Origin: a virus | Taxonomy: Duplodnaviria > Caudoviricetes | Direction: 5' to 3' (one strand) | IMG/VR virus record: IMGVR_UViG_3300028591_000071 | Length of the DNA: 64,000 nucleotides | Shown: in pieces, positions 622 to 62,074 of the stretch | How positions within the stretch are numbered: the first letter of the stretch is position 1 | Layout: each line of letters starts with the position of its first letter | Notes under the pieces: generated by a model | Database searches by the model: none | What the model saw: the letters and a program-made list of their open reading frames with translations, nothing else | What the model was told of the DNA's origin: nothing | Made by a program: the position numbers and the translations under genes

Positions 622-1344
622 TTAAAGAATTTGCCCCAAAATCTCATCTGCCCTGATGAATCTTTCGTCCAAAACAGGCTTCTCTTCCTCTTTTGACTCA
701 AGATATTGCCCCAATTCTTCCTTTCCGTTAGGGGAGATAAAGGCCCCCGGAGTACTAGGGTCACTAACCACATCCCAACAGACTATCTCATAATCATCAG
801 CCACATAGAGTATTCCCATCTTGTTCGTAACGGTTCCGAGACCCCTTGATGAAACGCCTATTTTATATCCTTGCAGCAAAAGGTTTGCTGTTTGGTCACC
901 CTGACAGGATATGATTCCATGCTTCCTGAAGCCCGGGCTTGTTATGATTTCAAGTTTTCCTACAAGCGTGTGTCCTTCCCAATGGAGTTCTACAATGTTT
1001 ATCGCAACGCGTGAAAGGTCTATTACTGATTCTGATGGGTGATTCAATTCTCCCATTGCCCTTTTCTCCTGAATCTTGGCCGCGTAGTTATTTACTTCCC
1101 TCTTAAGGATTTCCTCAGGATAAATTCTTCCGTTTGCGTTCTCAATGCCGTATTTTTGGAATACCGCATCTACAACAAATGGGTATGGGCAATGAAACTC
1201 GTCTCCCGATGCGTTTTCGGCGTTGATTGCCTCAAACAACTTCTTATTGTTTCCGCATTCTGAGGAGATGAATCCGTCATGCTCTATAAGCAAGCCGGTT
1301 CCAGTCTGCCCCTTCTTTATTTCAACTAAATTTTGTCTGTCCAT
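622..1344 (-). CDS. Prohead core protease, T4 gp21-like
   Basis: Motifs NANGRIYP, GELNHP, GVSSRGLG, WDVVSDPSTPGAF typical of gp21-family maturation proteases. Confidence 0.92.
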   Translation of the reverse strand: MDRQNLVEIKKGQTGTGLLIEHDGFISSECGNNKKLFEAINAENASGDEFHCPYPFVVDAVFQKYGIENANGRIYPEEILKREVNNYAAKIQEKRAMGELNHPSESVIDLSRVAINIVELHWEGHTLVGKLEIITSPGFRKHGIISCQGDQTANLLLQGYKIGVSSRGLGTVTNKMGILYVADDYEIVCWDVVSDPSTPGAFISPNGKEELGQYLESKEEEKPVLDERFIRADEILGQIL

Positions 1345-3623: not shown

Positions 3624-5411
3624 TTACTCTTTTTTTTTATTCTCGCCCTCGATAGGGATACCGGCCTTCAATTGGTACATGATGTCCTTGGTAACTGCAT
3701 CAACCAACTGATTGAACGGGTCACCGTCACCAATCTTTGAGCCGAATGGCTCTTCGCTGTGAACGCTCTCGTCGTTCCAGTCTTCACCCCACTGATTCTT
3801 GTCTTCACCCGTTGTAGGGAGTTCCATTGGCTTCTTCCTGTAGCCAGGGTGCTTTCCGAAAACATGGAGTTCATCTTCTGCGAGAATCTTGCTAACAACA
3901 GACTCTACGATGCTGTTCATAATCTTCTGCTTTGCTTCCATCATTGGAGTTGGCTCCATCATGCTGCCGTCACCGCACTCGTCAAGGTCGTCATCGTCTC
4001 CGAGGGTATCCTCGTCTCCGCCGAATTCACCTTCTCTTTCTCCCGAGAGGTCAGCACCGAATTCACCTTCGTCGTCTGCGCCAAGGTCTTCGCCACCATC
4101 AGCGTCGAGTTCATCTTCGCCGCCGTCTGCGAATGACTCTGCGTCACCTTCGAAATCAGGTTCCTCACCTGCGATATCTCCGACAGGTTCCTCTTCGCCA
4201 CCGTCTAATTTTGCACGGAGTGCGTCAAGTTGTGCCTGAAGGTCTTCAATCTGTGCCATAAGGTCAGCATCGTCGTCGCTTTCAACGCCGTCCTCTGCAT
4301 CAAAGTCGTCTTCTGCGTCAAGTTCTGAATCAAAATCGGCAGCGCCGCCATCAACATCCTCAACACCCGCGTCAAGGTCTGTATCTGTTGCAGGGTCTTC
4401 GTCGTCTCCGCCGAAATCCTCTACATCAAAGTCATCTCCGCCTTCTGCAGGAACAGCCTCTGTGTCAACATCGGCCTCTGTATCAACAGGTGCTTCTACA
4501 TCTTCCTCTCCGTCGAGTTCTTCTTCCTCATTTACATTCTTGTTGAATGGGTCGTTGTTATGGTCGGTATCTGCCTCACCAACTCCTGCTGATGAAGGAA
4601 GTCCCTCTGAAGCCCAATCGTTCTCTTCCTCGTTGACCTTCTGCTGTCCATCCATTTCCCAACCGATTTCCTTAGGGTCGCGGCCCTTTCCGATGCCTTC
4701 GGTCCCCCAGTTCTCCGTGTTAGGGTGGAGAGGAGCGTCACCGATGTCTCCGGCCTCTTCCTTGAGCTGGTCTTTTGGATTGCCTTCACCCTGGTCGAAT
4801 GGAGCAACTTTCTTATCAACACCATTGGTCTTTGAACCCTTGTATTCAGGGTCTGCCTTTGTTTCCTTTCCGCCTTCGTCACCCTTCTTGCCTGTCTCGG
4901 CCTCAGGATTCTTGCCGTCGTACATTACAACGTCCCCGTCGCGTGAAGCGCCAATTTCGCTTGACTCTTCCATCAACATTGAAACATTGTACATAATCTG
5001 ACGTTGACGAGCGATTTCGTCGCGCATTGCGTCGGTTGCTTCCTGAAGTACCTGATGTGACCTGAAAGGATTAAGTGATTCGATATTCACTTTCTGGTCA
5101 TGCGCCTCATTGATGGAAGCCATTTTGAGTTCAAACTGCTTGAGGGCGTTTGCGTAACTCTTATATTCATAGTCGCCCTTGTTGCAGAACCCGCCAAGAT
5201 ACTCATAAGCCTCAGCGATAGTCTCCTTGCCCTTAGGAGCAGACTTAATATAATACTTGCTATTCTCCTTGATGATACCGTAAGTAACGCCGTCTGCTGC
5301 TACTGCGCGATGCTCAAGGGTGTGGGTTTTTAGGTTATTGCTCTCATTTAATTCCTTACCATAGGTATAAAGGTCTTTCATTCTTGCGAGAGCTTCGTCA
5401 AAACTTGGCAT
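3624..5411 (-). CDS. Highly acidic prohead core/internal protein
   Basis: 595 aa, D/E-rich, many L/I-x-E sites, ends in KKKE on an A9 run; ATATTTAT motif at 5455-5462. Confidence 0.7.
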   Translation of the reverse strand: MPSFDEALARMKDLYTYGKELNESNNLKTHTLEHRAVAADGVTYGIIKENSKYYIKSAPKGKETIAEAYEYLGGFCNKGDYEYKSYANALKQFELKMASINEAHDQKVNIESLNPFRSHQVLQEATDAMRDEIARQRQIMYNVSMLMEESSEIGASRDGDVVMYDGKNPEAETGKKGDEGGKETKADPEYKGSKTNGVDKKVAPFDQGEGNPKDQLKEEAGDIGDAPLHPNTENWGTEGIGKGRDPKEIGWEMDGQQKVNEEENDWASEGLPSSAGVGEADTDHNNDPFNKNVNEEEELDGEEDVEAPVDTEADVDTEAVPAEGGDDFDVEDFGGDDEDPATDTDLDAGVEDVDGGAADFDSELDAEDDFDAEDGVESDDDADLMAQIEDLQAQLDALRAKLDGGEEEPVGDIAGEEPDFEGDAESFADGGEDELDADGGEDLGADDEGEFGADLSGEREGEFGGDEDTLGDDDDLDECGDGSMMEPTPMMEAKQKIMNSIVESVVSKILAEDELHVFGKHPGYRKKPMELPTTGEDKNQWGEDWNDESVHSEEPFGSKIGDGDPFNQLVDAVTKDIMYQLKAGIPIEGENKKKE

Positions 5412-14249: not shown

Positions 14250-14292
14250 TTTATTTAACGGCTATTTATTTAAGAATATAGTATGCAATTAT

Positions 14293-15885
14293 ATGAAAAA
14301 AATTATATTGAGCGAATCACAGTCAAAAATGCTTGCATCAATTCTTAAAGAAGAAGAGAGACAAGTGCAAAACATGCCTGTTGATAAGAAGATGAATAAA
14401 CCATATTGTATAAACCCCGATAAAGTCCTTGCCGTAAAGAAGTACCTTGACAACGGATTTACAGCACACGATTTTGAAAGGGTCGGGGCTAATGGTTATC
14501 CGGAGAAGATTAAAATCATCACGATGAATGCTTCAAACGGACAGCCACTAAAGCCAATGTACAAAGACCAGTTAAAAGACCTCCTCATAGATAAGTTCCA
14601 AAAGATGTTCTTGGATAAGGTTGAAAGGGAGATGTTCATCACGCAGGTCTTGAATGACTGGCTCAACGGCTCCATAGGTGTTCATGGAACGCTTACTACA
14701 AATCTATTGAAAGAAACTACGGTGTCTTCTGATATGGTTGATGAGCGTGCCTCTGAAACAAATACGGAGCCAACAGAAAAGCAAAAAGAAGCCGGAAACT
14801 ATAAGATGGGGCACATCTCAATTAAGGGAATGCATATTTCAATAGAAAATCCAAAGGGGTCGCTCAGGAAGGGGAAGGACCGCAACGGAAAAGAGTGGGA
14901 AGTAAAGATGAAAAATCATTACGGATATTTCACCAACACGACCGGAAACGGAAAGGATGGTGACGCTGTGGATGTGTTCATCGGACCTCATACAGAGGAT
15001 TTCGACAAGATTTATGTCGTTGACCAAAAAGTTGATGGTGAATTTGATGAGAGCAAGGTCATGCTCGGATTCTATGACAAGGATGAGGCAAAGAGGGCTT
15101 ATTTATCAAATTATTCACCTGGATGGAATGGATTTTGGAAGATAACAGCTGTTTCAATAAAGACCTTCAAGAGGTGGCTCTATCGCGGAAACAAACAAAG
15201 AAAACCGTTCTTCGATTATGTTACGATAAAGAAACAGAAACTTAACGAAGCAAGGCTCAATGAAGAAGAATATAATGAAATAAGATTCATTGGAAGAGCG
15301 TTTGATGAGAAGGGGGCGCAAGAAATTGCTGAAGAGTTAAATGCAAAAGGAATAGAAACATATGTAAGAGGAACTTCGGTCTATATCATTGTAGAACAGG
15401 ACAGAATGTACCCTTCATATGTCGATGAGATTGAATCCCTCGCAAAGAGAACCATGGGCGAATACATGCAGACCCACTCAATTACCGCAGACGAGCCTGA
15501 ATTTGCGACTGCATTGTCAGAGGATATTTCTCCTTTGGACATGTACAAAAACCTCAAGACAAATAATCCAGGAATATCAAGAACCGAAGAGCCACCATTT
15601 GACTCATGGAAAAGAGTGAAGAGAAAGGACGGAAAAATGAACTTGAAGAACATAGATACCGATGAAGTTCTTTCAGATATTTGGTTTGATTGGATTGGTT
15701 ATCTAATAAATGGTTATGCAATAGTTGGAATTGATGATAAGGGATACAACCTTATTGACAAAGACGGCAACATCATTTTACCGGAATGGCACGAAGATAT
15801 ATACGAACCGCTTGGCAACGAAGACAGTTATGTTATAGTTGATGGAAAAGAAAGGTCGTTGTTCAATCCGACATCTGAAAAATAA
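14293..15885 (+). CDS. Multidomain protein with a polyvalent-protein-type inorganic pyrophosphatase (InPase) domain and C-terminal WG-like repeats
   Basis: GNYKMGH..IENPKGS..HYGY..DGDAVDVF..FDESKVMLG; true start MKKIILSESQ after CTATTTAT (14262-14269). Confidence 0.75.
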   Translation: MKKIILSESQSKMLASILKEEERQVQNMPVDKKMNKPYCINPDKVLAVKKYLDNGFTAHDFERVGANGYPEKIKIITMNASNGQPLKPMYKDQLKDLLIDKFQKMFLDKVEREMFITQVLNDWLNGSIGVHGTLTTNLLKETTVSSDMVDERASETNTEPTEKQKEAGNYKMGHISIKGMHISIENPKGSLRKGKDRNGKEWEVKMKNHYGYFTNTTGNGKDGDAVDVFIGPHTEDFDKIYVVDQKVDGEFDESKVMLGFYDKDEAKRAYLSNYSPGWNGFWKITAVSIKTFKRWLYRGNKQRKPFFDYVTIKKQKLNEARLNEEEYNEIRFIGRAFDEKGAQEIAEELNAKGIETYVRGTSVYIIVEQDRMYPSYVDEIESLAKRTMGEYMQTHSITADEPEFATALSEDISPLDMYKNLKTNNPGISRTEEPPFDSWKRVKRKDGKMNLKNIDTDEVLSDIWFDWIGYLINGYAIVGIDDKGYNLIDKDGNIILPEWHEDIYEPLGNEDSYVIVDGKERSLFNPTSEK

Positions 15886-15912: not shown

Positions 15913-16615
15913 TTTGTTTAAGATTGCTTCCGTAGAAGTCCGTTGGACTCGTTCCGCAATATTCGGCCATCCTCGTTATTGCATCCAAATAAGACATTCC
16001 GCCCCACCCGAATAGCGTTGATGGGTCTGATTTTACATGTTCAAGTTTTGGGCAGTCCACTTCATAGAATGCAACGCTCGAAACCCCGTCTATCTTTTTT
16101 GCTGCGGAATTGAATTGCTGAATGTTTCCTTTCTCACATTTACAAATCCACCATTTATAGTCAGTTCCTTCTGGCTTCTTTATTATGCATAATATAGCGG
16201 CGTCGTACTGTTGGTTCTTGCCTTCGGTATCCGTGTCCGTCCTTATTGTTTCAGATGAAATTTTCCACCCGTCGGCGTTTATTCTCTGAGCGATGCTCAT
16301 GAATTCCTTTCCGTGTTTGTTTTGCGGACATATCCCCATTACGAGATAAACATATTCATGACACATTTCGTGCAGAAGAGTACTTATGACGGCATTTTCG
16401 TCCCTTGAATAACGGTTTGTAAGCGTTATCTTTCCGGTTCCATTGACTTTCGTAATCTTAAGTGTTTTAAGATTATACCTTGCATCAAGGTCATATACGC
16501 CCCATAGCCCGCTAAGTCCCTCAACTGCAAATTGCGGGGTAGGCAACTGCCCGCCAAAATACTTCTGATTGTATTCGGCGAACTTCTGCCTCATCCATGG
16601 AACTGTTGGAATCAT
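15899..16615 (-). CDS. SprT-like zinc metalloprotease domain protein
   Basis: FAEYNQKYFGG..TLLHEMCHEY..HGKEF. Confidence 0.8.
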   Translation of the reverse strand: MIPTVPWMRQKFAEYNQKYFGGQLPTPQFAVEGLSGLWGVYDLDARYNLKTLKITKVNGTGKITLTNRYSRDENAVISTLLHEMCHEYVYLVMGICPQNKHGKEFMSIAQRINADGWKISSETIRTDTDTEGKNQQYDAAILCIIKKPEGTDYKWWICKCEKGNIQQFNSAAKKIDGVSSVAFYEVDCPKLEHVKSDPSTLFGWGGMSYLDAITRMAEYCGTSPTDFYGSNLKQIKAG

Positions 16616-16986
16616 TACTTGCTAACCTTAATGAAACAACCGGTTTGACCATTGTATTCTTCCATACCTTCCGCCCTTGTTCTTACGCCCTTATCTTGAT
16701 AATAGATGTTGAGGTCTTCAACAAGTTCCTCGAAAGGAAGTGATTCATCAAATGCAAACACTGCATCATTACTCTTATAGCACCTGAGTACCAAGAAATT
16801 AGGGCCCTTATCGGCTGTGACTGCTTTCCATCCGTTACCTTTTATAACATCAGACGCTTTCTGTGGTTTTCCTTCCGGTCTTGTCCTTCTGAAAAGGCCC
16901 TCACTTAGCATCTTTTTTGTTGCGTTATAAACTATAGCGGCAATCTCGTTTTCGTTCAACTTAAGTTTGTTCATATTAAAATGCAT
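16615..16986 (-). CDS. Hypothetical protein with the shared leader motif
   Basis: KLKLNENEIAAIVYNATKKMLSE; CTATTTAT at 16996-17003. Confidence 0.6.
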   Translation of the reverse strand: MHFNMNKLKLNENEIAAIVYNATKKMLSEGLFRRTRPEGKPQKASDVIKGNGWKAVTADKGPNFLVLRCYKSNDAVFAFDESLPFEELVEDLNIYYQDKGVRTRAEGMEEYNGQTGCFIKVSK

Positions 16987-20180: not shown

Positions 20181-20396
20181 ATGCCAAAAACACAACCATT
20201 ATCAGCCGAAGGTGTTGTAACCGAGGCTCTTCCAAATGCCATGTTCAGGGTTGAGCTTGACAACGGATACAACATACTTTGCGTTGCAAGTGGAAAAATG
20301 AGAAAGAACTATATTAAAATAATAGTCGGTGATAAGGTAAAGATAGAGATGACCCCTTATGACCTGACGAGAGGACGAATAGTAACAAGATTATAA
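20181..20396 (+). CDS. infA: Translation initiation factor IF-1
   Basis: [49 protein letters not shown] is the canonical IF-1 sequence. Confidence 0.95.
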
Positions 20397-20419: not shown

Positions 20420-20848
20420 ATGCTTAATTCATTGATTAGATTGCTTGACGATTCCAATCTTGATTATCTTGAGAATCGCCTCAGTGCGGGTATTGACCGC
20501 TTCAAGAAGGCTTTTGGCGCCGCTTTTACTTCACTTGAGGACAAGGAAGACCATTATGAACTCGCTCTTGATGTCGCTGACGACGCAAAGGCAAGCAATG
20601 TCTCCGTTAATTATGATGACGAGACCCGTGAACTCTCTGTCGAGTATAAGTACGAGTCTGCCAATTATAAGAACACAGCCACTGTCATTGAGACTTTGCC
20701 TGTAGATGCGGATGAGGAGACTATTGGCGCAACCGTAGAAAACGGAAAGTTCACGCTTACCGTTTGGAAAAAGGTTGTTGAGGATAATGAGCCTGAAGAG
20801 GAAGTTTCAGATGTGATTGTTCCAATCAACAGAAAGAACCGCAAGTAA
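20420..20848 (+). CDS. Small heat-shock protein (Hsp20-like)
   Basis: EDHYELALDV..VSV..LPVDAD..IGATVENGKFTLTV.K alpha-crystallin pattern. Confidence 0.7.
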   Translation: MLNSLIRLLDDSNLDYLENRLSAGIDRFKKAFGAAFTSLEDKEDHYELALDVADDAKASNVSVNYDDETRELSVEYKYESANYKNTATVIETLPVDADEETIGATVENGKFTLTVWKKVVEDNEPEEEVSDVIVPINRKNRK

Positions 20849-20849
20849 A

Positions 20850-20884
20850 AAAAACAAGGGAGGGCTTGATGCTCTCCCTTTTTA
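20850..20884. terminator. Bidirectional terminator
   Basis: AAGGGAGGGC-TTGAT-GCTCTCCCTT-TTT. Confidence 0.75.
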
Positions 20885-21604
20885 TTTCATATAGTTGTTT
20901 ATGAATTCAAGCAAATCAGAATATCCGCTGTTGAATGCCATCCGTTCCCCAAATTCTTCGCAGAGGTCTTCTTCGTCAAAACCAAGCAGCCACCTGACGG
21001 CTTTCAGTTTTTTACCTTTGAATATTCCCGTTCCCCGCTGAGTGTCAAGCCTTCTCTGCTGCTTAATCCAATCAATGAGCCCGTGGCCACATTCATGCCA
21101 AAGACTTACCCTTATTTGGTCTATCACATCGTCGTAGGTTATGAAATCATCTTCATCTTCGAGCCATGACATTATAGCAGCCTTATTCACGGAAAATCTC
21201 ATGCAGCCATCACGCCTGACGCTTCTGTTCTGATACACAGCCACGCAGTCAGCGTAATATCCCGAAAAATCGTAACGCTTGTTGAACTTCGCCTTTATTC
21301 CGAATTGCGATAGATATTCGTTTATTAACTGGCATATTTGCGAGACTTCGTCATCGAAATTCTGTTCAACCATATCGGAAACCTCAGATTCGGCAATCAT
21401 CCTGACTGATTCATAGACCATTTTCCTGATGTCATCCTCACATAGGTCAATCTTGTGTTTTTCCTTTCTCGTGTAGGCTTTCTTGTTTCTCGTCTTGGTT
21501 GTCCTGAACACAGTCGGCTTACCGTGATGTTCGATGTCTTCCCGTCTTCTCTCAGCACCGTCACGCTTGATTATGTCTCTGTTTATGTCAGTCTTTTTCG
21601 GCAT
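20882..21604 (-). CDS. Fusion: ArfA-like basic peptide, shared targeting-like motif, HExxH domain
   Basis: HGKPTVFRTTKTRNKKAYTRKEKHK; LCEDDIRKMVYESVRMIAE; WHECGH. Confidence 0.6.
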   Translation of the reverse strand: MPKKTDINRDIIKRDGAERRREDIEHHGKPTVFRTTKTRNKKAYTRKEKHKIDLCEDDIRKMVYESVRMIAESEVSDMVEQNFDDEVSQICQLINEYLSQFGIKAKFNKRYDFSGYYADCVAVYQNRSVRRDGCMRFSVNKAAIMSWLEDEDDFITYDDVIDQIRVSLWHECGHGLIDWIKQQRRLDTQRGTGIFKGKKLKAVRWLLGFDEEDLCEEFGERMAFNSGYSDLLEFINNYMK

Positions 21605-22416
21605 TACTTAAGCGATTTGATATAGTTTATTATTCCGTCAACATGTGTCTTAATCACGGCTTCTCTTCCTGAGGCAGAAAGGATATACGACACATCGTCA
21701 GGGTTATCGTAGAAGAAATTTTCCGTAAGGACTGCCGGGCACAGAGACTTATAGATAACCGTGAAATTTGCCTCCCAATCCCTGTCTCCATCGGACATGT
21801 CTTTTCTTATAGCCCTTCCTTTGAAGTTTTTCTCCGCTTCGTCATAAAGTGCTTCAGCGAGTTTGTCGCTCTTCGTAGTACCCTTTGTCGTATACGCGCT
21901 CCACCCTTTAGCCTTCATCCATTCGCTTCCATTTCCTGCTGCGTTAGAGTGAATAGACACCAAGATGCAGTTTGCTGCGCCAAGTTTTTTACAGAAGGCG
22001 TTCACCCTGTTTGCCCTTTCTGTAAGGGATATGTCACTTTCTTCCTTTACGAGGAGTTCGGCATCGTATCCACGGCGTACCAATTCGTCAACAATCGGCT
22101 TTGCAATCTCCCTGTTCCACTTATATTCGTAGAACTCTATTTCAGGTTTAACCTTCGCAGCACACCAAGGACTTCTTTTTCCCGGCGTGTTCGTTCCGTG
22201 CCCGTTGTCTATGAGAATCTTTATATTTGACTTCTTTCCTGTCAGCGTTATTGTTTCTTCCGTTGTGCCGCTCTCTTCTTTGGGCTCTTCTTCGTGTATC
22301 GGCTCTGTGACGGTAATCGTTTCACCGCTTTCAACGCTTGGCTCAGATACGATTGGCTCCTCTTTCTTAAAGAGCCCTTTTATAAAATCAATTAACGCTT
22401 TAAACAAATTCTTCAT
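21604..22416 (-). CDS. N-acetylmuramoyl-L-alanine amidase (Amidase_3), endolysin
   Basis: ILIDNGHG..PGKRSP..E..LVSIHSNA..PAVLTENFF. Confidence 0.9.
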   Translation of the reverse strand: MKNLFKALIDFIKGLFKKEEPIVSEPSVESGETITVTEPIHEEEPKEESGTTEETITLTGKKSNIKILIDNGHGTNTPGKRSPWCAAKVKPEIEFYEYKWNREIAKPIVDELVRRGYDAELLVKEESDISLTERANRVNAFCKKLGAANCILVSIHSNAAGNGSEWMKAKGWSAYTTKGTTKSDKLAEALYDEAEKNFKGRAIRKDMSDGDRDWEANFTVIYKSLCPAVLTENFFYDNPDDVSYILSASGREAVIKTHVDGIINYIKSLK

Positions 22417-25009
22417 CTCCGTTCCTCCTTCTATCAACATCTATTATTGATTTGTAAATCTTGTTGAAATTTTCCCTCACCTGTACCTGTTCAGGATATA
22501 TAATCGATTGAACTATTTGCCCAATTTCAGGTTTGTTCGGATATGTAATAAAAACCGGATTTTTTGACCACGGCAGATAGCTAAATCTTATTTCTTTTCC
22601 ATTTCTCGTTGTCGTAAATTGAATTCCACCGTCATACGATTTTGACAAATCAATTCCATCCAGCAATATTCCATTCTGATTCGGAAGAAGGCTCGTATCT
22701 ATACCGTTTGTCTCAATATAGAAAAAACGATTATTGTCAATCACAGGAATATAAGCGTTGGCCGATATCCTACCACCTTGGATAATGTTCAATTTCTTTT
22801 TCAGAACGATATTCTTGTTTCCCATGATATATCCACCGGTAAGGTCTTGGTCCCAAATTACCCAAACTACGATGTTGGTGTCTGCTACGATTCCGTAAAA
22901 AACAGGCGTTTTTCTTCCACTAACCCCATTCAGAACACAAGTTCCATTGAAATAGTCGTACAAAGAAACATTATCTTTATCTTTTCCGAGATAAACGAGG
23001 CCGAGTTTTTCAAGTTGAGGAACCGTTCCATATACGCCAAATTCTCCTTCAATCGCAAACCTACCCGCTTCTATGTCAAATACATTTACATGGTCATTTT
23101 TGTCGGTAACAACGACATATCCATCATGTATATTTTGGTATGCCATCTTTTTGAACGGACCGAATATTCTTGGGCCATCCTGTCTGTCAAATGAGAATAT
23201 GTAAAAGTCTTTGCCCTCCGTTCTGCATGCCCAATAAAATCCCCTTGAAGTCATTGGTCTGCTGTAATCATCCACCGTATCACCGACCCATTTCCTATTG
23301 TCAATATCAAAGAAGCGGAAACCCGTAGAGTCTTCACATATTGCGAGGTCGCATGCCGTGGTCGAATACCATTCTATATCTTTGAATGGATGTTCAAAAA
23401 CAAATTTCTTTTCTTCAACGGAGTAGATATTCTTTCCCGGCTTTCCTTCAACGATAAAGAAATGGTCGTTGATTTTTTCGGCTATGTGGTAGTTGGCTTC
23501 GGATTCTGATTCAAGTTCATACTCAAAATATTGTCCTTTCGCACATAGTTTCCCTCCCTTCATGAACGGGGTAAAATAAGACTTTTCTGGCTTGTCATTA
23601 TGGATGAAGAAATCATATCCTTCGCTATCCATATAAAGAAGCCCGCGATTTCCGTTCACATATATCAATTCAACAAATGAGCCAGGATATGTGTTAAGTC
23701 CTGGGTTCGTTCCTTTATATTGGCGGATAAACGCCTCGATTGCTTCTGACGGTTCTACGCTTTCTATTGAAAAATCTGAATCCGCGTCTTCAAGTTCCTT
23801 TATCTTATACGGCCCATAGCCGCCATTTGCAGGGACAGCAAACACTTTACCCCCTCCCGTTGCTATAATATCAACTTCCCTTGAACATCTTATGGACAAA
23901 TCGTCTTCTTCTTCCCAATCAAAATAGGTTCCGCCCCATCGTCCGTCAGATTCTTCTCCGTAAACGAGAACCGGATATTCGTGATAATCTTTCAATATCG
24001 CTATCGGTTCGTCCGTGTTTGGATATGACTTTATGAGGAAGTCTTCGGGATTATATGGCGTATTCGGGAAAACGGAATCCGAATAGTCTTCGTTATCATA
24101 AAGAAACCAATTAACGCCGTCAATGTCGCAGTCATCATTTTCCTCAGGCATGAGGTCGAGATATCTTCCGTTATAATCGAGAACTCCGATTGCAGCGTTA
24201 ATCCTCTCTTCTTCGTATTCTATTCTTCTGCGTTCAGCGTCATTTTCCGGTCCGTTTTCTATTATTTCTCCGTATCTTTCATCCTGACTTCTGTAGAAAT
24301 CAACAACGCCCTCAGGAAAATCCATCTCAGAAATATTTACCCTGTGGTCGTACTTATCCATGAACTCGCCTGCCCAATTTTCCCATTCAAACAAGAATTG
24401 ATATCTTTTGTATGGGTATTCCTTGTTATCTTCAGGACATATTTCACTTCCCCGCCTGTCAAAATTAACCCAAAGAGGACCCTTTGATGAATATCTGTTA
24501 TAGTAATGCTGCCCATCTCCGAAAGCGCCAGCCGTACACCATTTGCACCCCTTTCCGAGTTTCTTTGCCGCCGGATATGAATGCGGGACGGCAATAGTCC
24601 ATTCGGGTGTATCATAAACGACGTCAAAGTCATTCTCTTCTTCGCTACCATCTTCCTTGTCAAGAACGGGGTCCACATCAGGAAGCATCTCAATCGCTTG
24701 TGCAACGCTTTTCATCGCATTAAGGTCAAGTCCTTGGCCGGCTCTCTCCTTGAAGAGTTTGAAAACCCTCTTCATCGTCTTATCTTTTATCGCTGAAAGT
24801 ATAACGTTTCTTTCGCTCTCCCAATGTATAAGAACCCAATTCGTGAAGTTTTTCTTCTTGGTCGGGTCTATCTCCAAAAGGTAGTTAAGAACTTCCTGCG
24901 GAACACCCTTTCCCTGTACGAACTTATATTCCATAGTCCGCTTTATCTCCTCGGGTGACTTCGCTTCGGCTATCAATCTATCGTAATATTCTTCAAGTCC
25001 TAAAATCAT
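22400..25009 (-). CDS. Large protein with a PcfJ-like domain and beta-repeat C-terminal region
   Basis: WTIAVPHSY.AA..LG..KWCTA..YQF; start MILGLEEYY after ACTATTTAT (25029-25037). Confidence 0.6.
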   Translation of the reverse strand: MILGLEEYYDRLIAEAKSPEEIKRTMEYKFVQGKGVPQEVLNYLLEIDPTKKKNFTNWVLIHWESERNVILSAIKDKTMKRVFKLFKERAGQGLDLNAMKSVAQAIEMLPDVDPVLDKEDGSEEENDFDVVYDTPEWTIAVPHSYPAAKKLGKGCKWCTAGAFGDGQHYYNRYSSKGPLWVNFDRRGSEICPEDNKEYPYKRYQFLFEWENWAGEFMDKYDHRVNISEMDFPEGVVDFYRSQDERYGEIIENGPENDAERRRIEYEEERINAAIGVLDYNGRYLDLMPEENDDCDIDGVNWFLYDNEDYSDSVFPNTPYNPEDFLIKSYPNTDEPIAILKDYHEYPVLVYGEESDGRWGGTYFDWEEEDDLSIRCSREVDIIATGGGKVFAVPANGGYGPYKIKELEDADSDFSIESVEPSEAIEAFIRQYKGTNPGLNTYPGSFVELIYVNGNRGLLYMDSEGYDFFIHNDKPEKSYFTPFMKGGKLCAKGQYFEYELESESEANYHIAEKINDHFFIVEGKPGKNIYSVEEKKFVFEHPFKDIEWYSTTACDLAICEDSTGFRFFDIDNRKWVGDTVDDYSRPMTSRGFYWACRTEGKDFYIFSFDRQDGPRIFGPFKKMAYQNIHDGYVVVTDKNDHVNVFDIEAGRFAIEGEFGVYGTVPQLEKLGLVYLGKDKDNVSLYDYFNGTCVLNGVSGRKTPVFYGIVADTNIVVWVIWDQDLTGGYIMGNKNIVLKKKLNIIQGGRISANAYIPVIDNNRFFYIETNGIDTSLLPNQNGILLDGIDLSKSYDGGIQFTTTRNGKEIRFSYLPWSKNPVFITYPNKPEIGQIVQSIIYPEQVQVRENFNKIYKSIIDVDRRRNGDEEFV

Positions 25010-25049
25010 ACTATACAATATCTCTAAGATAAATAGTTTATGCCTTCCA

Positions 25050-26310: not shown

Positions 26311-27643
26311 GATTTGCGAACGGGAAAACCCACTACTTTAGTGGTGGGATGAAAGCGAACTCACCTTCTTTTTTGCAAATATACATTTTTTTTACAAAAA
26401 ATCAAAACTTTTTGTAAAAACAAACTATTTATATGTAGAATGAAGGAAATTTACAAATCATACAGATTCAGAATCTACCCGAACAAGGAACAACAAGCCG
26501 TCCTTGCCCGGTATTTTGGCTCTGTGCGTTTTGTGTATAACTATTTCCTTGCTGAACGGAAACGACAATACGAAGAAAGAAATTATTCTGATAATTACTA
26601 TGCACAGGCGAAGGCGTTGACGGAACTCAAGCATTCTGAAGAATTCTCGTGGCTATCCGAAATCAATTCCCAAACCCTACAGCACGCACTTCGTCATCTT
26701 GAAACGGCATATGTCAATTTCTTCCGTGGAAATGCAAAGTTTCCCTCATTTAAATCAAAGAAAGCCAAGAATAGTTTTACTGTTCCACAGCATTGTACAA
26801 TATCAGGCAACAAAATCTATATTCCTAAGTTCAAAGAAGGCATTAAGGTAAGGGAGCACCGCAAGGTTAAGGGTACTGTAAAGAGTATGACAATTTCTTT
26901 GACACCGGCTGGTAAATACTATGTTTCCATCCTATCAAAAGAAAATTGTGAAACTATAGGCAAAACCGGTAAGGCGGTAGGTGTTGACTTGGGCTTGAAG
27001 GATTTCGTTATTACCTCCGATGGAAAGAAGTATAAGAATCATCGTTACATAAAACAATATGAAAAAAAATTAGCGGCAGCGCAAAAGCATCTTTCTCGTA
27101 AACAACACGGTAGCAATTCCTATGAAAAACAAAGAAGAAAAGTTGCCAAGATATACGAGAAAATAACCAACTGTCGTATGGATAATCAACAGAAAGTTTC
27201 TCTTGATTTAATCAGAAACTATGATGTTATCTGTTTAGAAGACTTAAACATCAAGGGGATGGTTAAAAACCGTCACATGGCAAAAGCAATCAATGACGCC
27301 TCCTGGGGACAATTTGTTTCAATGCTCTCCTATAAGGCAGAATTAAATGATAAACAGGTTGTCAAAATAGATAGATGGTATCCTTCAAGCAAAACCTGCC
27401 ACAATTGCGGGTGGGTTAATGAAGGTTTAAAACTATCCGACAGGCAATGGGTTTGCCCTCATTGTGGCGAGGTGATAGACAGAGATGTTAATGCTGCTAA
27501 AAATATCCTCTCAGAAGGATTAAGAAATATATCGGTGGGGCACACCGATTACACTGATGGAGACAGAGTAAGACTTAGTAATAAGCATCAGTCCGTGAAG
27601 TCAGGAAGAAGCCCACGATTTTAATCGTGGGGGTCTATGTCAC
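26311..27643 (+). mobile_element. IS200/IS605-family element, TnpB only (IS1341-like)
   Basis: LE hairpin CCCACTAC-TTTA-GTGGTGGG (26329-26348) after TTTAT; RE hairpin CCCACGATT-TT-AATCGTGGG (27612-27631), ending TCAC; no tnpA. Confidence 0.85.
26440..27624 (+). CDS. tnpB: RNA-guided endonuclease TnpB
   Basis: HTH YRFRIYPN; RuvC GVDLG / LEDLN / DRDVNAA; Zn finger CHNC..CPHC. Confidence 0.95.
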   Translation: MKEIYKSYRFRIYPNKEQQAVLARYFGSVRFVYNYFLAERKRQYEERNYSDNYYAQAKALTELKHSEEFSWLSEINSQTLQHALRHLETAYVNFFRGNAKFPSFKSKKAKNSFTVPQHCTISGNKIYIPKFKEGIKVREHRKVKGTVKSMTISLTPAGKYYVSILSKENCETIGKTGKAVGVDLGLKDFVITSDGKKYKNHRYIKQYEKKLAAAQKHLSRKQHGSNSYEKQRRKVAKIYEKITNCRMDNQQKVSLDLIRNYDVICLEDLNIKGMVKNRHMAKAINDASWGQFVSMLSYKAELNDKQVVKIDRWYPSSKTCHNCGWVNEGLKLSDRQWVCPHCGEVIDRDVNAAKNILSEGLRNISVGHTDYTDGDRVRLSNKHQSVKSGRSPRF

Positions 27644-27653
27644 AATGAGTTTT

Positions 27654-29411
27654 TCATTGTCCCAATAACTTTTTTACGCACTCATTTATCATTTCTTCAA
27701 TATCTTCTTGGTTGAACAATGATGGCTCTTTTAATGCCCTCTTTGTGTTTGACACTTTAGCCGCGATTGAAGTTTTCTTTGACATAAAATCATATGACGG
27801 AACAAGTTCTGACAATTTTTTTATAGCATCATGTGTGTCAGTAACATTGGTTATAGTGACCGGTTTTCCGTTAATTCTAAATGTTAAAGAAGGAATAACA
27901 ATGTCTGATGGTTTTCTTCCCCTCTTTTTAGGCTCTCCATTTACTTTATCCAATTTTTTGAGTTTCGATGCGGCTGCGTTACCTCTTTGATATTGTGTAA
28001 CAATACCCTTTCGCCTGTCTTTCATCCTCTCATATGCCGCATGGTTTCTTGCTTTCTTGTCTTTGTCCGCAGTCTTTATATCTTCATCATGCGGCCATAT
28101 CATTTTCATTATATTCGCCGCCGCCACAAACAATTTCTTATAATTGTCAAGGTTAAACCTTTCTTCAATTATCTTGAAGATTGAATGTATCATTGATTTC
28201 GATATGCCCTTAAGAAAATCAAACTTTGGATTGCTGCTAAAACAATATTTTGCTATTTCCGAATTAGTCAAAGATTCGTATGTAGAAAATATCATATCGG
28301 TTATCTTCTTGTTCAAACTCGGTTCCCTTATCGGGCCGGTCAATTCTTTAATGACACTAAGAACATTTTCTGCTGAGAATAATGAATTGAATCTGAAAAG
28401 ACCGGTATGCATGTTAGATTCGTTAACGGGCACTAGATTGCCATATTTTTCCATGAAAAGAACAATCCAAACAAAGACGGCGAGATTTTTGAGTTTTGCA
28501 CTCTCAATCAACTTCGGCATTCTTTTTTTCTTTGCCTGCATCGTGTCTAATTTATCTGTTATTTCCGGTCTCCATGTAAGCGGAGATATGCCAACTTTTT
28601 CTCCCGCGCTTTTAATTCTCTCAAAATCAGGCCTGTTATATGATTTAAAATCCCCATAGACATGAATCTTCCCTTCAACGGGGGTTCCTTTTGCTAAATC
28701 CAAAATTTCTTTAGCGTCAACTATAGAATCTTTGGACGATGCCAATATATCTATCCTCGTAATATAATTGAGTATTCCGTCAAAATCGTATGTGTAGCCA
28801 AACAATCTATCTTCGGCTTGTTTAATCATTGACATTTTTGTTGCGTCACCGTTCGCCCATTTGCCCGAGGTAGTTTGAAGGTTGTGTTTATGGACCTTTC
28901 CGTTCTCATCAGTATATGGCCCGAAAAAATCTATTGGCTTTATAACGCGGCCGGCGGACAATGCCCTTCCATCAAATGTTATTCTTGCAGAGCCAACACT
29001 GTTTGGTAATGTTGGGGATACATTTATCTGTTTTCCTCCCTTTCCGTATGAGGCATTAGGGTCTATTGCCTTTGTATAGCCCCAGTTTGCGTTTGGACTT
29101 CTTGTAAGACTTAGATAATGAGTGTAATTACCTTCTCGTCCCAATATTTGTTTATCAACTTTTCCAGGATGGCTTAGTGAGAAATATCCGCCATTCTTTC
29201 CGTTGTTCTGGAGCATTGACTTTATTGAGTTTATGCTTGTAAAATGGTATAGAATTTCAGAGCCGCCCCTTTCATTTATTTTGTTTTCGTTTAGTGCGGA
29301 TTGATGGTCGAATTTACTCCTGTCATGGCATAGCGTTCCCATATTCCTTTCAAGGAGCAAGGAAACACATTCTGTAACCATCTTGCGTATATCTGATTCT
29401 AAAAATACCAT
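27654..29411 (-). CDS. Putative ADP-ribosyltransferase-fold virion protein, targeting-like motif at both ends
   Basis: LYHFT / LSLTRS / QAEDR triad; N-terminal FLESDIRKMVTECVSLLLE; C-terminal QEDIEEMINECVKKLL. Confidence 0.5.
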   Translation of the reverse strand: MVFLESDIRKMVTECVSLLLERNMGTLCHDRSKFDHQSALNENKINERGGSEILYHFTSINSIKSMLQNNGKNGGYFSLSHPGKVDKQILGREGNYTHYLSLTRSPNANWGYTKAIDPNASYGKGGKQINVSPTLPNSVGSARITFDGRALSAGRVIKPIDFFGPYTDENGKVHKHNLQTTSGKWANGDATKMSMIKQAEDRLFGYTYDFDGILNYITRIDILASSKDSIVDAKEILDLAKGTPVEGKIHVYGDFKSYNRPDFERIKSAGEKVGISPLTWRPEITDKLDTMQAKKKRMPKLIESAKLKNLAVFVWIVLFMEKYGNLVPVNESNMHTGLFRFNSLFSAENVLSVIKELTGPIREPSLNKKITDMIFSTYESLTNSEIAKYCFSSNPKFDFLKGISKSMIHSIFKIIEERFNLDNYKKLFVAAANIMKMIWPHDEDIKTADKDKKARNHAAYERMKDRRKGIVTQYQRGNAAASKLKKLDKVNGEPKKRGRKPSDIVIPSLTFRINGKPVTITNVTDTHDAIKKLSELVPSYDFMSKKTSIAAKVSNTKRALKEPSLFNQEDIEEMINECVKKLLGQ

Positions 29412-30876: not shown

Positions 30877-33216
30877 TCATGCGTTCAGAAGCAATGACAC
30901 GCATTCATTGACCATTTTCTTTATGTCAGATTCGTTTATGCGCATTGTATCAGGCTTTCCTTCTATCTTTCCAAGATATTCTCCGCTATTCGGGTCTATT
31001 ACATGCCAAATATCGTTTTCATATTCGTCATATGACTTGTTAAAATAAAACTTTCCTTGAACGACATCGTATTCGTAGATTTCCTTGGCAATGATTTTAC
31101 CGGTGGATAAATTGACCAAATCGTTCAGTATGCTATCATCGTTAAAAGAATATCTCTCCAATAGAGCAATCGCTCCCCAAACACGCCTGCGAACGAAATG
31201 TCCTTTGAATCTCGCCAAAACATCGCTTCCTCCGTCTACCGTTCCCCCGTTTGCGGACACCACAAACGCGTGCGAGCAAATGTCGTCCGACCAATCGCTT
31301 GATTCTTCGTATGCCCTGCTTACAAAGTTTCGTTCAAAATCGTTCGTTCCATTGCATTCAACATTAACCAACATTCTGTTTGTTTCCCTTGAGATAATCC
31401 TGAATATTCCAAAATCAAATTTTATTGGGTACCCCATTTTCGCCTCGTTATCGCTGCCGTGTTCAATAATGGCGTGGATAAGTTCATCGTCGTACATCCC
31501 ATCATTGACACTCTTTTCAAGTGATGCCGTGGCCTTTTGTTCGAAGGTGATTACTCGTTCCTCCCAATAATCTTGCTCATTTTCTACCCCTTTGACTGTT
31601 TGTTCAATAAGTTCTCCGTACGGAATCTCTTGCAAGAGTTTGTTTAATGTTTCAGGATTTGAGAAAAGTGCGGCGACATCTTTCATATTCTTGTCCTTGT
31701 CAAGAAAGTCACAGCACGAATCAAGTTCCCCGTCTTCGTAGAATTGGCATTGGATGCTGAGTTGTCTGTTTTTCTTTGAAACGAACTGAACAAGGCAAGC
31801 ATATCCTTCTGTTGTATAGTAGCAGAACATCTTGAAACCGTTATACCTTCCCGCAATGTCAGATGCCGTGCACCAGTGTGAGTCTCCGTAATATTTCTTT
31901 GATGCGGAATAACTTGTCGTACAGGTGACGAGCACATTATCGTCTTCAAATATCTTTATGAGCCCATTATCGGCGAATTTCATTTCTGTGTGATAAGGCA
32001 TCTTTTCCGTTGTTTCAAGAAAACGAAGAAGTGAATGGAACGAAGGGTTTCTACCTCTTTTCTTCCACCCGTTTATCATGTCAATGACATATTGCCTTCC
32101 CTCGCCATCAAGTTTGTTCCAAACCCCAGGAACCTTCTCTGCGAGTTGTTGACTCCATCCACCATAGTCCTTGAACATGGCATCTAGCGCGAGTTTATGG
32201 AGCGGGGTCATTGTCGGAGCACCGGACATGAATGCGTTCCACTGCTCAGGTGAAACCTTATCCTTGTAAAATTTGTTGTATGCATCGGCTGAAGAAATCT
32301 CGTTGAGCATCGCCTTCTTGAACGCGGAGACAACCATCTCCTTCAAGTCATTTCTGGTCATCTCCATAACGGTTCCGTTGTCAATCCTTGCCGTAAATTT
32401 AAATTTACCCAACTCATTTACAATCGGTTTACCTGTGATGTCCCAATATCTGTATGTTTTCATTTCGTGCTTGTATCCTTTTTCGAACAGTAGGCTTACC
32501 AAATCAGGGTCTTGTGATGTGAGGAGCCTCAGGCATCTTCCTTCCCTACTTTCAATCCTTTCCACTTCGCCGACAAGATTCCAATTATTGGCATTCATGA
32601 GCCTAACTTCTCCGTTTTTCATATACATGACTACGACAATAATCCTTGAGGCTTTTGCCGCCGCTCTTCTTTTTTTCTTTTCGGCGAACACGGAATTGAG
32701 TTCCATCTCGTTCATCTGCTCAGCCTTCGCAATCCTTTCTACGGTGAAGAACTCGTTTGACTTTTGGCTGACTCGGAACGCTATAGACTTGAATTCATTG
32801 CCGTGGTGCTGAACGGGCCTCCATCCATCCATGTTGCAATAATAATGGCACATCTCATGAATCAATGTGCTGAGCGCAGCCTTTTTTGACCACTTATAAT
32901 TGCCGTTCAGTTCAATGCGAGGCTTGCAGACCGATGCGAAATTTTCTTTCGTGATGTAGTTTTTGTCGCCCCACATATCCTTTGTAAACATCCTTCTTGA
33001 ACTCTTGGAAACATATATGCCGGTGCCGGTTATCTTGAACCAACCAAGAACACCGCCCTCTGCGCCCTTTCCTGTTGTGAAGAGCCCGAATGAACAATCT
33101 CCAAGTTTTCCGTCAAAGTAAGATGTGTTCAACCTGTTATACTCCGTCTGAATCCAAGCGGGGGTAAGGTCAATTACATCATTCTCATCAAGTTCGTTTA
33201 TCAGGTCGTATTTCAT
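30877..33216 (-). CDS. Multidomain protein: SprT-like protease plus PcfJ-like domain
   Basis: TLIHEMCHYY..HGNEF; SHWCTA; internal MTRNDLKEMVVSAFKKAMLNE and terminal INESDIKKMVNECVSLLL motifs. Confidence 0.7.
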   Translation of the reverse strand: MKYDLINELDENDVIDLTPAWIQTEYNRLNTSYFDGKLGDCSFGLFTTGKGAEGGVLGWFKITGTGIYVSKSSRRMFTKDMWGDKNYITKENFASVCKPRIELNGNYKWSKKAALSTLIHEMCHYYCNMDGWRPVQHHGNEFKSIAFRVSQKSNEFFTVERIAKAEQMNEMELNSVFAEKKKRRAAAKASRIIVVVMYMKNGEVRLMNANNWNLVGEVERIESREGRCLRLLTSQDPDLVSLLFEKGYKHEMKTYRYWDITGKPIVNELGKFKFTARIDNGTVMEMTRNDLKEMVVSAFKKAMLNEISSADAYNKFYKDKVSPEQWNAFMSGAPTMTPLHKLALDAMFKDYGGWSQQLAEKVPGVWNKLDGEGRQYVIDMINGWKKRGRNPSFHSLLRFLETTEKMPYHTEMKFADNGLIKIFEDDNVLVTCTTSYSASKKYYGDSHWCTASDIAGRYNGFKMFCYYTTEGYACLVQFVSKKNRQLSIQCQFYEDGELDSCCDFLDKDKNMKDVAALFSNPETLNKLLQEIPYGELIEQTVKGVENEQDYWEERVITFEQKATASLEKSVNDGMYDDELIHAIIEHGSDNEAKMGYPIKFDFGIFRIISRETNRMLVNVECNGTNDFERNFVSRAYEESSDWSDDICSHAFVVSANGGTVDGGSDVLARFKGHFVRRRVWGAIALLERYSFNDDSILNDLVNLSTGKIIAKEIYEYDVVQGKFYFNKSYDEYENDIWHVIDPNSGEYLGKIEGKPDTMRINESDIKKMVNECVSLLLNA

Positions 33217-51766: not shown

Positions 51767-51976
51767 ATGGGGAATAGCATTAAATGCCCAATTTGTAATC
51801 AAATGGTGGCGGTGAGGTCAAATGCAGTAACACCTATTGGGTTTGACCATGAGATTCAGATGGTTGTATCAGATTGTGGCCACTTGTGCGGATGTATAGA
51901 TAATGCATATTACATTAACACAGTTCGCGCCTTAAACAATCTAACCAGGCAGTTGTCAGCTGAGAAGAATCGGTAA
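51767..51976 (+). CDS. IS passenger: small Zn-finger protein
   Basis: CPIC..CGHLC; TATCTTTG box at 51740-51747. Confidence 0.5.
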   Translation: MGNSIKCPICNQMVAVRSNAVTPIGFDHEIQMVVSDCGHLCGCIDNAYYINTVRALNNLTRQLSAEKNR

Positions 51977-52544
51977 TACGATTTTTCTTTAAGAAATCGT
52001 TTTGTATTTCTATATCTTGGTCTGACATATTGTTAGGCCATACTTCTCCTTTGTTATCAACAACGGTTTTCTTATAAACCTTTACTCCGTTGTCAGCAGA
52101 TGTTTCAAGTACCCTTCTAATACATTCTTTAACAATCATTCTTAAATCAGATTCTGAAAGTGTGACTGTTTTTCTTTCACAAAGCGGAATTGGGGAATTG
52201 TGGTAATCTCCTTCATAGAGAGCATCTTTTACATTGAAAACATATCCACCTTTTCGTGTTTTCTTGATAACGCCAGCGAAATACCAATGACGGTATTTTG
52301 TTACCAACCACTTGTGCGCTTCCCACGGATTATAAGATGAACCCCTGACATCAGTTTCGTATGTGACTTGTTGCCCGTGAAAGGACGCCACAGTCACAGC
52401 CTCTGACGATAATTGTGTTCGGAGAATTGCTCTTGCTCTTGGGGAACGAATCCTCTTTGCCCTATTCTTGTAGAAATGGGCATATTTCTGCGCTATTAGT
52501 GTATTGATAGCACCATTGGGAGGAAAGTTAATCGTTACGAGCAT
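51915..52544 (-). CDS. IS passenger carrying the phage targeting-like motif
   Basis: VTLSESDLRMIVKECIRRVLE. Confidence 0.6.
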   Translation of the reverse strand: MLVTINFPPNGAINTLIAQKYAHFYKNRAKRIRSPRARAILRTQLSSEAVTVASFHGQQVTYETDVRGSSYNPWEAHKWLVTKYRHWYFAGVIKKTRKGGYVFNVKDALYEGDYHNSPIPLCERKTVTLSESDLRMIVKECIRRVLETSADNGVKVYKKTVVDNKGEVWPNNMSDQDIEIQNDFLKKNRITDSSQLTTAWLDCLRRELC

Positions 52545-52775: not shown

Positions 52776-53717
52776 CTATGCTGCAACGGAAAGTTTCACG
52801 AGATTTGCAAATCCGTCCTCAACCTTGCGGTGGTTCATACGGAAGCAGAACTCATCCATATAAGTCTGCATATGCTTAACCGATACATGGTGGTAGATTC
52901 CGTAGACACCCCTCTTGACGATTGCCCAAAACGATTCAATACCGTTGGTGTGCTTTCCGTCACCCTTGGAGAACTCAACCTCATGGTTCACCATGATACG
53001 AATGAAATTCTTCGTATTCTCAACCCTGCCTTCATCAATCACATTATAGCCACTATATTGGTCAGTCATAACAGTAGTACCTTCCTTGCAAGCATCGTTA
53101 AGTACCTTCAACAACTGTTTGCCCGTCAGTTTCTGCCCATTGGCATTTGCAGTAGCCACAACACAATGTACCCTGCCACTATTCCTTTCTTTAACACCAA
53201 TCACAGGTGTTTTGGAGGATGAACCCCTGCCACGCTTATTGAACTTCTCATTGGTTTCCCTTTCAAAGTGAACATTCTCCTTGCGAGGTTTGCCACCCAC
53301 ATAGGTTTCATCCACTTCAACAATGGCTTCAAAGCAATCCTTGTATTCCTCCTTGCCCATAATCTCACGGATAAGATGAAGCATACGCCATGCTCCCTTA
53401 TAGGATTTCATACCAAGTTCCCTCTGCAACTGACAAGCGGAGATACCCTTCTTGGCAACCATAACGAGGTTGATGGCGTAGAGCCACATACGGATGTCAA
53501 GATGGGTGTTTTCAAAGATGGTTCCCTTCAGTACGGAGAAATGGGATTTGCAGTTGTTGCAGTACAAATCCTTACCATTGTTGGCACTGTCACGGTAGAT
53601 GTTGTGAACACAACCGCAGAACGGACAGACATAAGGACCGTTGTACTTAACCTTGATGATGAAGTCAATGGCCGACTTCTCCGTGGGGAAACGCTTATGG
53701 AAATCAAAAATAGTCAT
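52776..53717 (-). CDS. IS1595-family DDE transposase
   Basis: CPFC..CNNC Zn ribbon; EVDETYVGG, TDQYSGY, VNH, HTNGIESFW. Confidence 0.93.
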   Translation of the reverse strand: MTIFDFHKRFPTEKSAIDFIIKVKYNGPYVCPFCGCVHNIYRDSANNGKDLYCNNCKSHFSVLKGTIFENTHLDIRMWLYAINLVMVAKKGISACQLQRELGMKSYKGAWRMLHLIREIMGKEEYKDCFEAIVEVDETYVGGKPRKENVHFERETNEKFNKRGRGSSSKTPVIGVKERNSGRVHCVVATANANGQKLTGKQLLKVLNDACKEGTTVMTDQYSGYNVIDEGRVENTKNFIRIMVNHEVEFSKGDGKHTNGIESFWAIVKRGVYGIYHHVSVKHMQTYMDEFCFRMNHRKVEDGFANLVKLSVAA

Positions 53718-54088
53718 AGTTCAAGTCCTTTAACCTAAATCTATGACTATATACCCTAAAAGTCCAGAATTCTTACAACACTAAAAGGGATAATTCCGAA
53801 TATTTGTTGAAAGTGCTGAAAGAATCTGTCATATCCCGAGTATGAGTAACTATGAAACTCCCGTTAAAAGTAGCCTCATGATAACACTCGACACTTTTCC
53901 GACTTTTTACGTCGAAAAGTGAAACTTTCTGTCGGGTGGCGCGTATATACTCATGCCTTCTGATTGGTAAAGGGTGCCTTTCAGTCGTAGAGTAGCCGGA
54001 CACGGTCCGGTGACGCCAACCGAGCTGCGGAATCAGCCGCGGTGGATCATTACCCGCTAGTATCAATAGAAAACCAAAACTATCTGCA

Positions 54089-61585: not shown

Positions 61586-61768
61586 CCCGTCAGCTTAACA
61601 GAACCATTAACCAGGGATACAAAACGCTCCAATGGCGAAACCTACTACTGCAGCGAGCCTACATCCAATGTCGGGAAAGTAGGCCAGAAACGATGGAACA
61701 ACTGCGTTGTGAAGCACATAGATAAGGTTAAGTGACAAAAAATGATTAAATTTGAATTTATCATCTCA

Positions 61769-62074
61769 ATGGACAAAGCAAAACGAACAATGAAACCTAA
61801 AAAGAAACAGAAGAAACTCCGGATTACGGAGAGGGATTTCCTCCTGGCCAACCGAAGGGCGGCGAGGATCGAGGAAATCGAAGCGCATGGCCGGCCGGTT
61901 TCATTCCGGGGGGCTATCCACAAGTCCAAGAAGGTCTACAATCGCAAAGCACTGAAAAGGCAGGCATCTGATGATGACCTGCCTTTATCATTGACGTCTG
62001 TCTCTCCTTCCGCTCGGGTCACGGATGACGATTTCGTTCAGGAACGCATCCAGATCTCCCTGGAACTCCGATAA
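61769..62074 (+). CDS. ArfA-like alternative ribosome-rescue factor candidate
   Basis: HGRPVSFRGAIHKSKKVYNRK; TAAATTTG -7 box at 61747-61754; internal hairpin at 61956-61986 before the stop. Confidence 0.55.
   Translation: MDKAKRTMKPKKKQKKLRITERDFLLANRRAARIEEIEAHGRPVSFRGAIHKSKKVYNRKALKRQASDDDLPLSLTSVSPSARVTDDDFVQERIQISLELR
61956..61986. terminator. Hairpin/terminator inside the ArfA-like ORF and at the end of the convergent gene
   Basis: AAAGGCAGG-CATC-TGAT-GATG-A-CCTGCCTTT. Confidence 0.65.

Follow-up and report, generated by a model that had tools for sequence, protein, structure and literature searches.

Small release-factor-recruiting rescue factors are represented by ArfA (YhdL; PF03889; PDB 5MGP) in beta- and gammaproteobacteria and by BrfA (YqkK; PDB 6SZS) in Bacillus subtilis (PMC6881298). 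F25 of ArfA contacts RF2, and in both ArfA and BrfA the KH pair contacts U534 of the 16S rRNA (PMC8012679, PMC6881298). For such factors to act, the mRNA channel must be almost empty (PMC6881298). Both are made from non-stop mRNA, and in the case of brfA an in-frame terminator places the gene under tmRNA control (PMC8012679). Further factors of this kind probably exist beyond the reach of similarity searches (PMC8012679, PMC6881298), and neither ArfA nor BrfA is listed in a survey that covered 1,956 genomes of the FCB group (PMC11633108). Phage genes have also been annotated as ArfA, among them gp30 of pelagiphage HTVC027P (PMC12753301). On the side of the virion, head proteases of the T4 type cleave behind Glu and trim internal proteins that carry a tag; in T4, IPI-III and Alt carry a capsid-targeting sequence that is cut by gp21 (PMC5694885, PMC9958956), and IPI provides a precedent for a small injected cargo directed against host defences.

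The gene analysed here, at 20882-21604 (-), lies in a window of 64,000 nucleotides (the whole stretch of DNA studied), whose first ~53.7 kb belong to a T4-like jumbo phage with a GC of 0.36-0.45 over most of its length and whose remainder is bacterial, with a GC of about 0.53. The phage stretch was found in sheep and cattle gut metagenomes, and relatives sit on contigs of 165-400 kb. The gene is the third of a three-gene unit and its start overlaps the stop of the amidase gene. Its parts and immediate surroundings are listed below, with the evidence in brackets.

20882..21604 (-): whole gene of 240 aa, composed of a basic module, a helical LxE tag and an HExxH domain (ORF, homologues, DNA runs)
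21452..21604 (-): rescue-factor-like module, aa 1-51 (profiles, alignment, AF2 model)
21437..21445 (-): LCE, predicted head-protease site, aa 54-56 (conservation as [LIMF]xE; cleavage putative)
21389..21451 (-): helical tag, aa 52-72, with IAE at its end, a probable capsid-loading tag (tag common to other phage proteins)
20885..21388 (-): HExxH domain, probably zincin-like, with HECGH (aa 170-174) at 21083-21097 (conservation, weak fold match)
21604..22440 (-): Amidase_3 gene, endolysin-like, directly upstream and a conserved neighbour (domain match, loci of relatives)
20856..20880 (no strand assigned): terminator-like hairpin past the stop codon, between the module gene and the convergent HSP20 gene (hairpin scan)

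A preliminary description of this DNA had placed LCE, a shared motif and an HExxH domain behind an N-terminal piece, and all of them were found at the expected places of the 240-aa ORF; the residues quoted for the N-terminal piece are present at aa 19-51. The module consists of a helix (aa 7-27), HGKP, FR (aa 33-34) and a basic tail, YxRKxKH (aa 44-50). The predicted cut after LCE would release a 55-residue peptide (aa 2-56) with 18 K/R and 10 D/E. In the AlphaFold model, which is ribosome-free, helix 7-27 is followed by a disordered tail (33-51) and by a long helix from the LCE site onward; a fold search with the full model of the 240-aa protein gave no match at E<=0.001. The fused protein has seven homologues with 60-97% identity, three DNA runs (one of them possibly the source) show the region unbroken and with no indel listed within the ORF, and synonymous changes exceed replacement changes in the module codons, so that we regard the gene as real. 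That the majority of relatives are unfused could point to an assembly error or to a chance read-through, but the fused homologues and the contigs intact in all three runs led us to reject an assembly artefact as the origin of the fusion, and the probability left to either is negligible. In one sheep metatranscriptome there are RNA contigs over 20949-21272 and 21364-21544, possibly through DNA carry-over.

The N-terminal piece had been presented as a phage ArfA. By family model it is not an ArfA member: PF03889 (Pfam/NCBIfam) matched neither the gene, nor the module, nor any of 51 family members, and the module has a long N-terminal helix of its own and no GKG. The proposed likeness to the E. 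coli ArfA core nevertheless stood in a weak form, above what composition explains for the phage clade. A search of 177,635 PDB sequences, many of them K/R-rich ribosomal proteins, with the phage-module profile returned E. coli ArfA first, at E 0.23, level with the unrelated LptA at E 0.24. Against 18 ArfA sequences assembled for comparison, the same profile scored 22.3 (probability 52%, E 1.5e-4), and none of 100 column shuffles, which keep composition, reached this value (maximum 15.5). Pure K/R bias, named beforehand as a possible sole cause of the similarity, is therefore unlikely for the phage clade. The bacterial clade alone did not beat its shuffles against ArfA (7/116), and the broad family profile does not retrieve ArfA. 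An alignment selected for KH reached a probability of 63%, a figure that is partly circular, and for this reason we relied on the unselected phage alignment.

In the alignment to ArfA, F33-R34 falls on F25-R26 and YxRKxKH on YMRKGKH, with a three-residue gap at GKG, the KKGKGSY segment of ArfA being missing in the phage module; the RF2-augmenting strand is not formed in the ribosome-free model. K49-H50 is invariant in the phage alignment, and KH occurs in 41 of 43 phage cores versus 5 of 108 bacterial-type cores, giving the phage module the basic, KH-bearing C-terminal tail of ArfA and BrfA. The module shares with ArfA the size of the active piece and an F-R pair followed in register by the basic motif. 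It differs from ArfA in falling below the Pfam threshold, in having its own 20-residue helix with HGKP and in its capsid-type tag, and the module family differs in its Bacteroidales range and in a terminator that takes the place of the RNase III layout. BrfA is similar in its N-terminal helix, in the aromatic residue before a short strand and in its KH tail, but no BrfA chain appeared at E<=10 in PDB searches with three profiles, the phylum is another one, and the phage version is tagged and stop-terminated. Library scans gave no ArfT-type match. DUF7230 (PF23876), the nearest named family in an Atlas search (0.87-0.89, a lead only) whose other clusters were unnamed, is weakly matched by KH-bearing family members, over the tail only and below the cut-off (best E 0.0045). 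A bridge to ArfA is provided by Pseudoalteromonas phage J2-1, in which the two overlap: its annotated ArfA (ATN93434.1) is without GKG and passes both PF03889 and DUF7230. One JGI record calls a stand-alone relative ArfA. A complex prediction of the module with Bacteroidales RF2 scored 0.31 against a mark of 0.32 and was used neither way. The likeness may reflect either remote homology to ArfA or convergence.

A homologue of the module is present in the bacterial part of the window, with which the N-terminal piece had been said to align.

61790..62074 (+): Bacteroidales homologue, 94 aa from the conserved Met (homology, homologue starts)
61956..61987 (+): GC-rich hairpin within the bacterial ORF, with TTTAT behind it (-20.3 kcal/mol, z -5.2)

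The alignment was recovered both pairwise (41% identity over 39 aa, E 3e-8) and between profiles (probability 97%, E 2.6e-11). The bacterial ORF spans 61742-62074 (+), and homologues mostly start at Met 61790. With a combined profile, 595 clusters were retrieved at E<=0.001, and the named carriers are nearly all Bacteroidales; the family is present in 24 of 301 order-level, 24 of 121 family-level and 5 of 401 phylum-level genomes searched. No relative was found by an IMG/VR scan and tblastn of GenBank phages, and literature searches restricted to papers free of subscription returned no description of this Bacteroidales and phage module family. In a tree based on 50 columns, which gives no direction of transfer, the KH-bearing members are grouped with good support and for the most part away from the others.

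The bacterial core ends at YxRK, and the tails beyond it are freely variable. The hairpin at 61956-61987 lies about 10 nt past YNRK and about 85 nt ahead of the stop, and a non-stop mRNA is predicted. A GC-rich hairpin with a U-tract ~10 nt after YxRK, ending ahead of the stop, was found in 29 of 32 long-tailed genes of a close set (29/77 overall). Among loci from evenly drawn Bacteroidales genomes an in-frame terminator was present in 17 of 32, compared with 3 of 272 control gene ends, at a hairpin cut of -10 kcal/mol that several more hairpins just missed. The stems differ in sequence by lineage, with pairing and position kept. Hairpin-less genes, about half of the bacterial ones, mostly stop 6-14 codons past the core, making products of similar length. 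To judge from the sequences, this layout matches the non-stop design of brfA and, more generally, that of ArfA, in about half of the bacterial relatives. The phage genes examined have no in-frame terminator hairpin; since many bacterial relatives have one, the suggested escape from tmRNA control gains indirect support. ArfB was found in none of 24 carriers versus 100 of 277 non-carriers (Fisher p 5e-5, uncorrected for kinship and genome size), and the exclusion was not significant within one family (0/24 versus 7/97, p 0.34). Because of the in-frame terminators and the missing ArfB, it is the bacterial relatives that most strongly support the rescue reading. The family appears to bear the hallmarks of back-up ribosome-rescue factors, and we consider it likely that its members work as such, in the manner of ArfA and BrfA.

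As for the virion, the features of a capsid-targeted internal protein include a T4-type prohead protease, which the phage, like T4, encodes itself.

622..1344 (-): T4-type head maturation protease, predicted processing enzyme (PHROG 207, E 6e-43; Peptidase_S77)

The same helix as in the tag starts, ends or lies inside several other proteins of the phage. Much as in T4, a short tag with a putative Glu site at its end is found on unrelated proteins; it differs in being a helix of ~21 residues, compared with 10 residues for the T4 sequence, and in its variable position, since here it either follows the cargo at the C-terminal side or separates two cargos. T4-type head proteases have the consensus L/I-x-E. 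In counts drawn from related phages, which are not independent, 44 of 51 relatives have a first site behind the module that conforms to [LIMF]xE and 7 lack it, LxE closes the tag in 10 of 11 fused versus 1 of 40 stand-alone forms, and internal [LIM]xE occurs in 0 of 43 phage cores versus 48 of 108 bacterial-type cores. C-terminal copies of the tag in other proteins are also without the end site. LxE density was no higher in the scaffold than in ClpB and gave no distinction between head and other proteins. The product of the gene behind the scaffold starts in a way that we take to be like a gp23 propeptide, with LLSE/A closing this propeptide-like part. A capsid-loading role of the tag is probable, the conserved first site lends indirect support to the release at LCE that had been proposed, and packaging and cleavage of the module are somewhat more likely than not. 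The same or a similar helical LxE tag (N-terminal, C-terminal, both or internal) was noted at 27654-29411, 30877-33216, 51915-52544, 16615-16986 and 14293-15885; an InPase domain is carried by one of the other helical-tag proteins.

The relatives show that fusion to the HExxH domain is not the design. About 40 of them are stand-alone module and tag proteins of 71-84 aa, and in the stand-alone loci that were fetched the gene has, as here, the amidase gene on one side and convergent HSP20 and IF-1 genes (window 20420-20848 and 20181-20396, respectively) on the other. On one contig of 397 kb the two are split, the module gene standing next to a separate HExxH gene that has an N-terminal tag of its own, and in other phages three other cargos stand behind the tag. 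In a sister group the module follows an N-terminal tag or lies within proteins of 470-1100 aa, and in a 1101-aa phage protein it is flanked by LNE at both sides. We therefore rejected HExxH as a necessary partner: the constant partner of the module is the tag, and the HExxH fusion is incidental, since most relatives have only module and tag at the same locus and others a different cargo. The domain, with HExxH and downstream Glu residues conserved and a weak fold match to 3e11 (E 0.39), may have been joined through recombination at the shared tag.

The unit as a whole is preceded by a short element.

25029..25036 (-): CTATTTAT element, 27 nt ahead of the probable true start of the first gene of the unit (869 aa) (position counts; function putative)

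CTATTTAT was seen before genes 14 times, with 4.5 expected. Here and in three relatives it lies ahead of head-region genes, tagged genes and the module-gene unit, and in the same four it is absent before ClpB-, UvrD- or AAA-like genes. In its wider form, [CA]TATTTAT, it is a probable late promoter, and together with the tag and the LxE sites it is consistent with a late, packaged and processed cargo. The [CA]TATTTAT element corresponds to the T4 late box in reverse complement, and lies 13-51 nt ahead of gene starts at 551, 2520, 5462, 8878, 10814, 17003, 25036, 29430 and 33244 (-) and at 14262, 25745, 26425 and 30418 (+). A TnpB/IS605-like ORF (26440-27624, assigned by reading the sequence) stands directly behind a CTATTTAT element.

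In the reading that we favour, an unnamed family of small peptides in Bacteroidales rescues ribosomes by recruiting release factors, and the module is its phage copy. The basic tail of the module would be inserted into the mRNA channel that is empty on a non-stop ribosome, and a release factor, with RF2 the most likely one, would be recruited by the F-R strand. Many bacterial genes would make the peptide from non-stop mRNA, and its level would for that reason be held low by tmRNA. The phage version, with no internal terminator and with a helical tag, would be produced late and loaded into the prohead, where the head protease would cut after LxE and leave a peptide of ~55 residues, the HExxH domain being a second cargo attached through the shared tag. 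Once injected, the peptide might keep host ribosomes recycling upon early mRNA cutting. Rescue after mRNA- and tRNA-cleaving defences had been proposed; as factors of the ArfA type work on ribosomes whose mRNA channel is empty, the mRNA half of this proposal fits, and tRNA cutting would matter only indirectly, after secondary mRNA cleavage. Cas13 is common in Bacteroidota, and mRNA-cutting toxins or Cas13 are a plausible selective pressure. The whole chain, that is, a packaged, protease-released and tmRNA-independent rescue factor, falls slightly short of what we would call probable. More tentative still is the history that it suggests, in which an undescribed tmRNA-regulated peptide family covers the absence of ArfB in Bacteroidales, and a rumen jumbo phage clade took the gene, swapped non-stop control for a capsid tag and processing by the head protease, and delivers the mature peptide by injection to counter RNA-cutting defences.

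Part of this picture would change if the phage protein were a rescue factor neither packaged nor cut, with a tag that is a general helical interaction motif, and freed ribosomes during the late, high-rate synthesis of virion proteins. The late-type promoter element and the amidase linkage suit such late intracellular action, as do the 7 of 51 relatives missing the first LxE and the untagged ArfA genes common in phages. The recurrent pairing of module and tag, in several layouts (N-terminal, C-terminal and embedded), argues otherwise, together with the double LNE framing and the loss of the end site where nothing follows, and we hold late action outside the virion to be unlikely, if well worth keeping in view. 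A function away from the ribosome, as a basic peptide that binds nucleic acids (in the phage perhaps an internal protein that packs DNA) and resembles ArfA through K/R richness, would agree with the weak ArfA scores (E 0.23 in PDB; probability 52-63%) and with a bacterial clade that alone is not significant; it is quite unlikely given that composition-keeping shuffles never match the phage-clade score, and it would leave the in-frame terminators and the ArfB exclusion unexplained.

It may also be that the phage module binds the mRNA channel as a blocker, competing with tmRNA-SmpB or a host factor or parking ribosomes, and brings about no peptide release. Its best-matched part is indeed the rRNA-binding tail, the RF2-activating N-terminal half of ArfA is unrelated, and the KH-bearing members are mostly grouped apart. 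Since the phage module retains the entire bacterial core (helix, HGKP and FR) beyond the tail, and its synonymous codon changes exceed replacements, we judge blocking to be very unlikely and prefer the rescue reading. If true, phages would have a new route to protect translation from the first minute, by way of a rescue factor that is carried in the virion and matured by the head protease, and the surprise is limited because phage ArfA genes are already annotated. Traced through its phage copy, a concrete candidate rescue family in gut Bacteroidales is at hand, with a testable regulatory element; this cellular part is the most testable one, and phage culture is not needed for it.

Some observations concern the setting. 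No tRNA or tmRNA gene was found in the window. At ~53700-53800, beside a transposase-like ORF (52776-53717), GC shifts sharply from a phage-like ~0.39 to a bacterial ~0.53, which may mark a contig join or a chimera. As the bacterial stretch is compositionally different from the phage part, we rejected it as evidence for the host, and the presence of two module homologues in one window is thus uninformative in this respect. One rumen Bacteroidales genome has five copies of the cellular gene, which may reflect mobility or bin contamination. A stand-alone KH-bearing member (4001-4168 of its contig) was noted on a conjugative element, flanked by genes for a YWFCY/TraG coupling protein and a topoisomerase, and on low-GC contigs (0.26-0.38) there are short members with a KH tail that are untagged and stop-terminated. 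Finally, ArfA-like frames lacking a GenBank gene annotation of their own were seen in Pseudomonas phage pf16, Caulobacter phage Cr30 and Roseobacter phage CRP-212.
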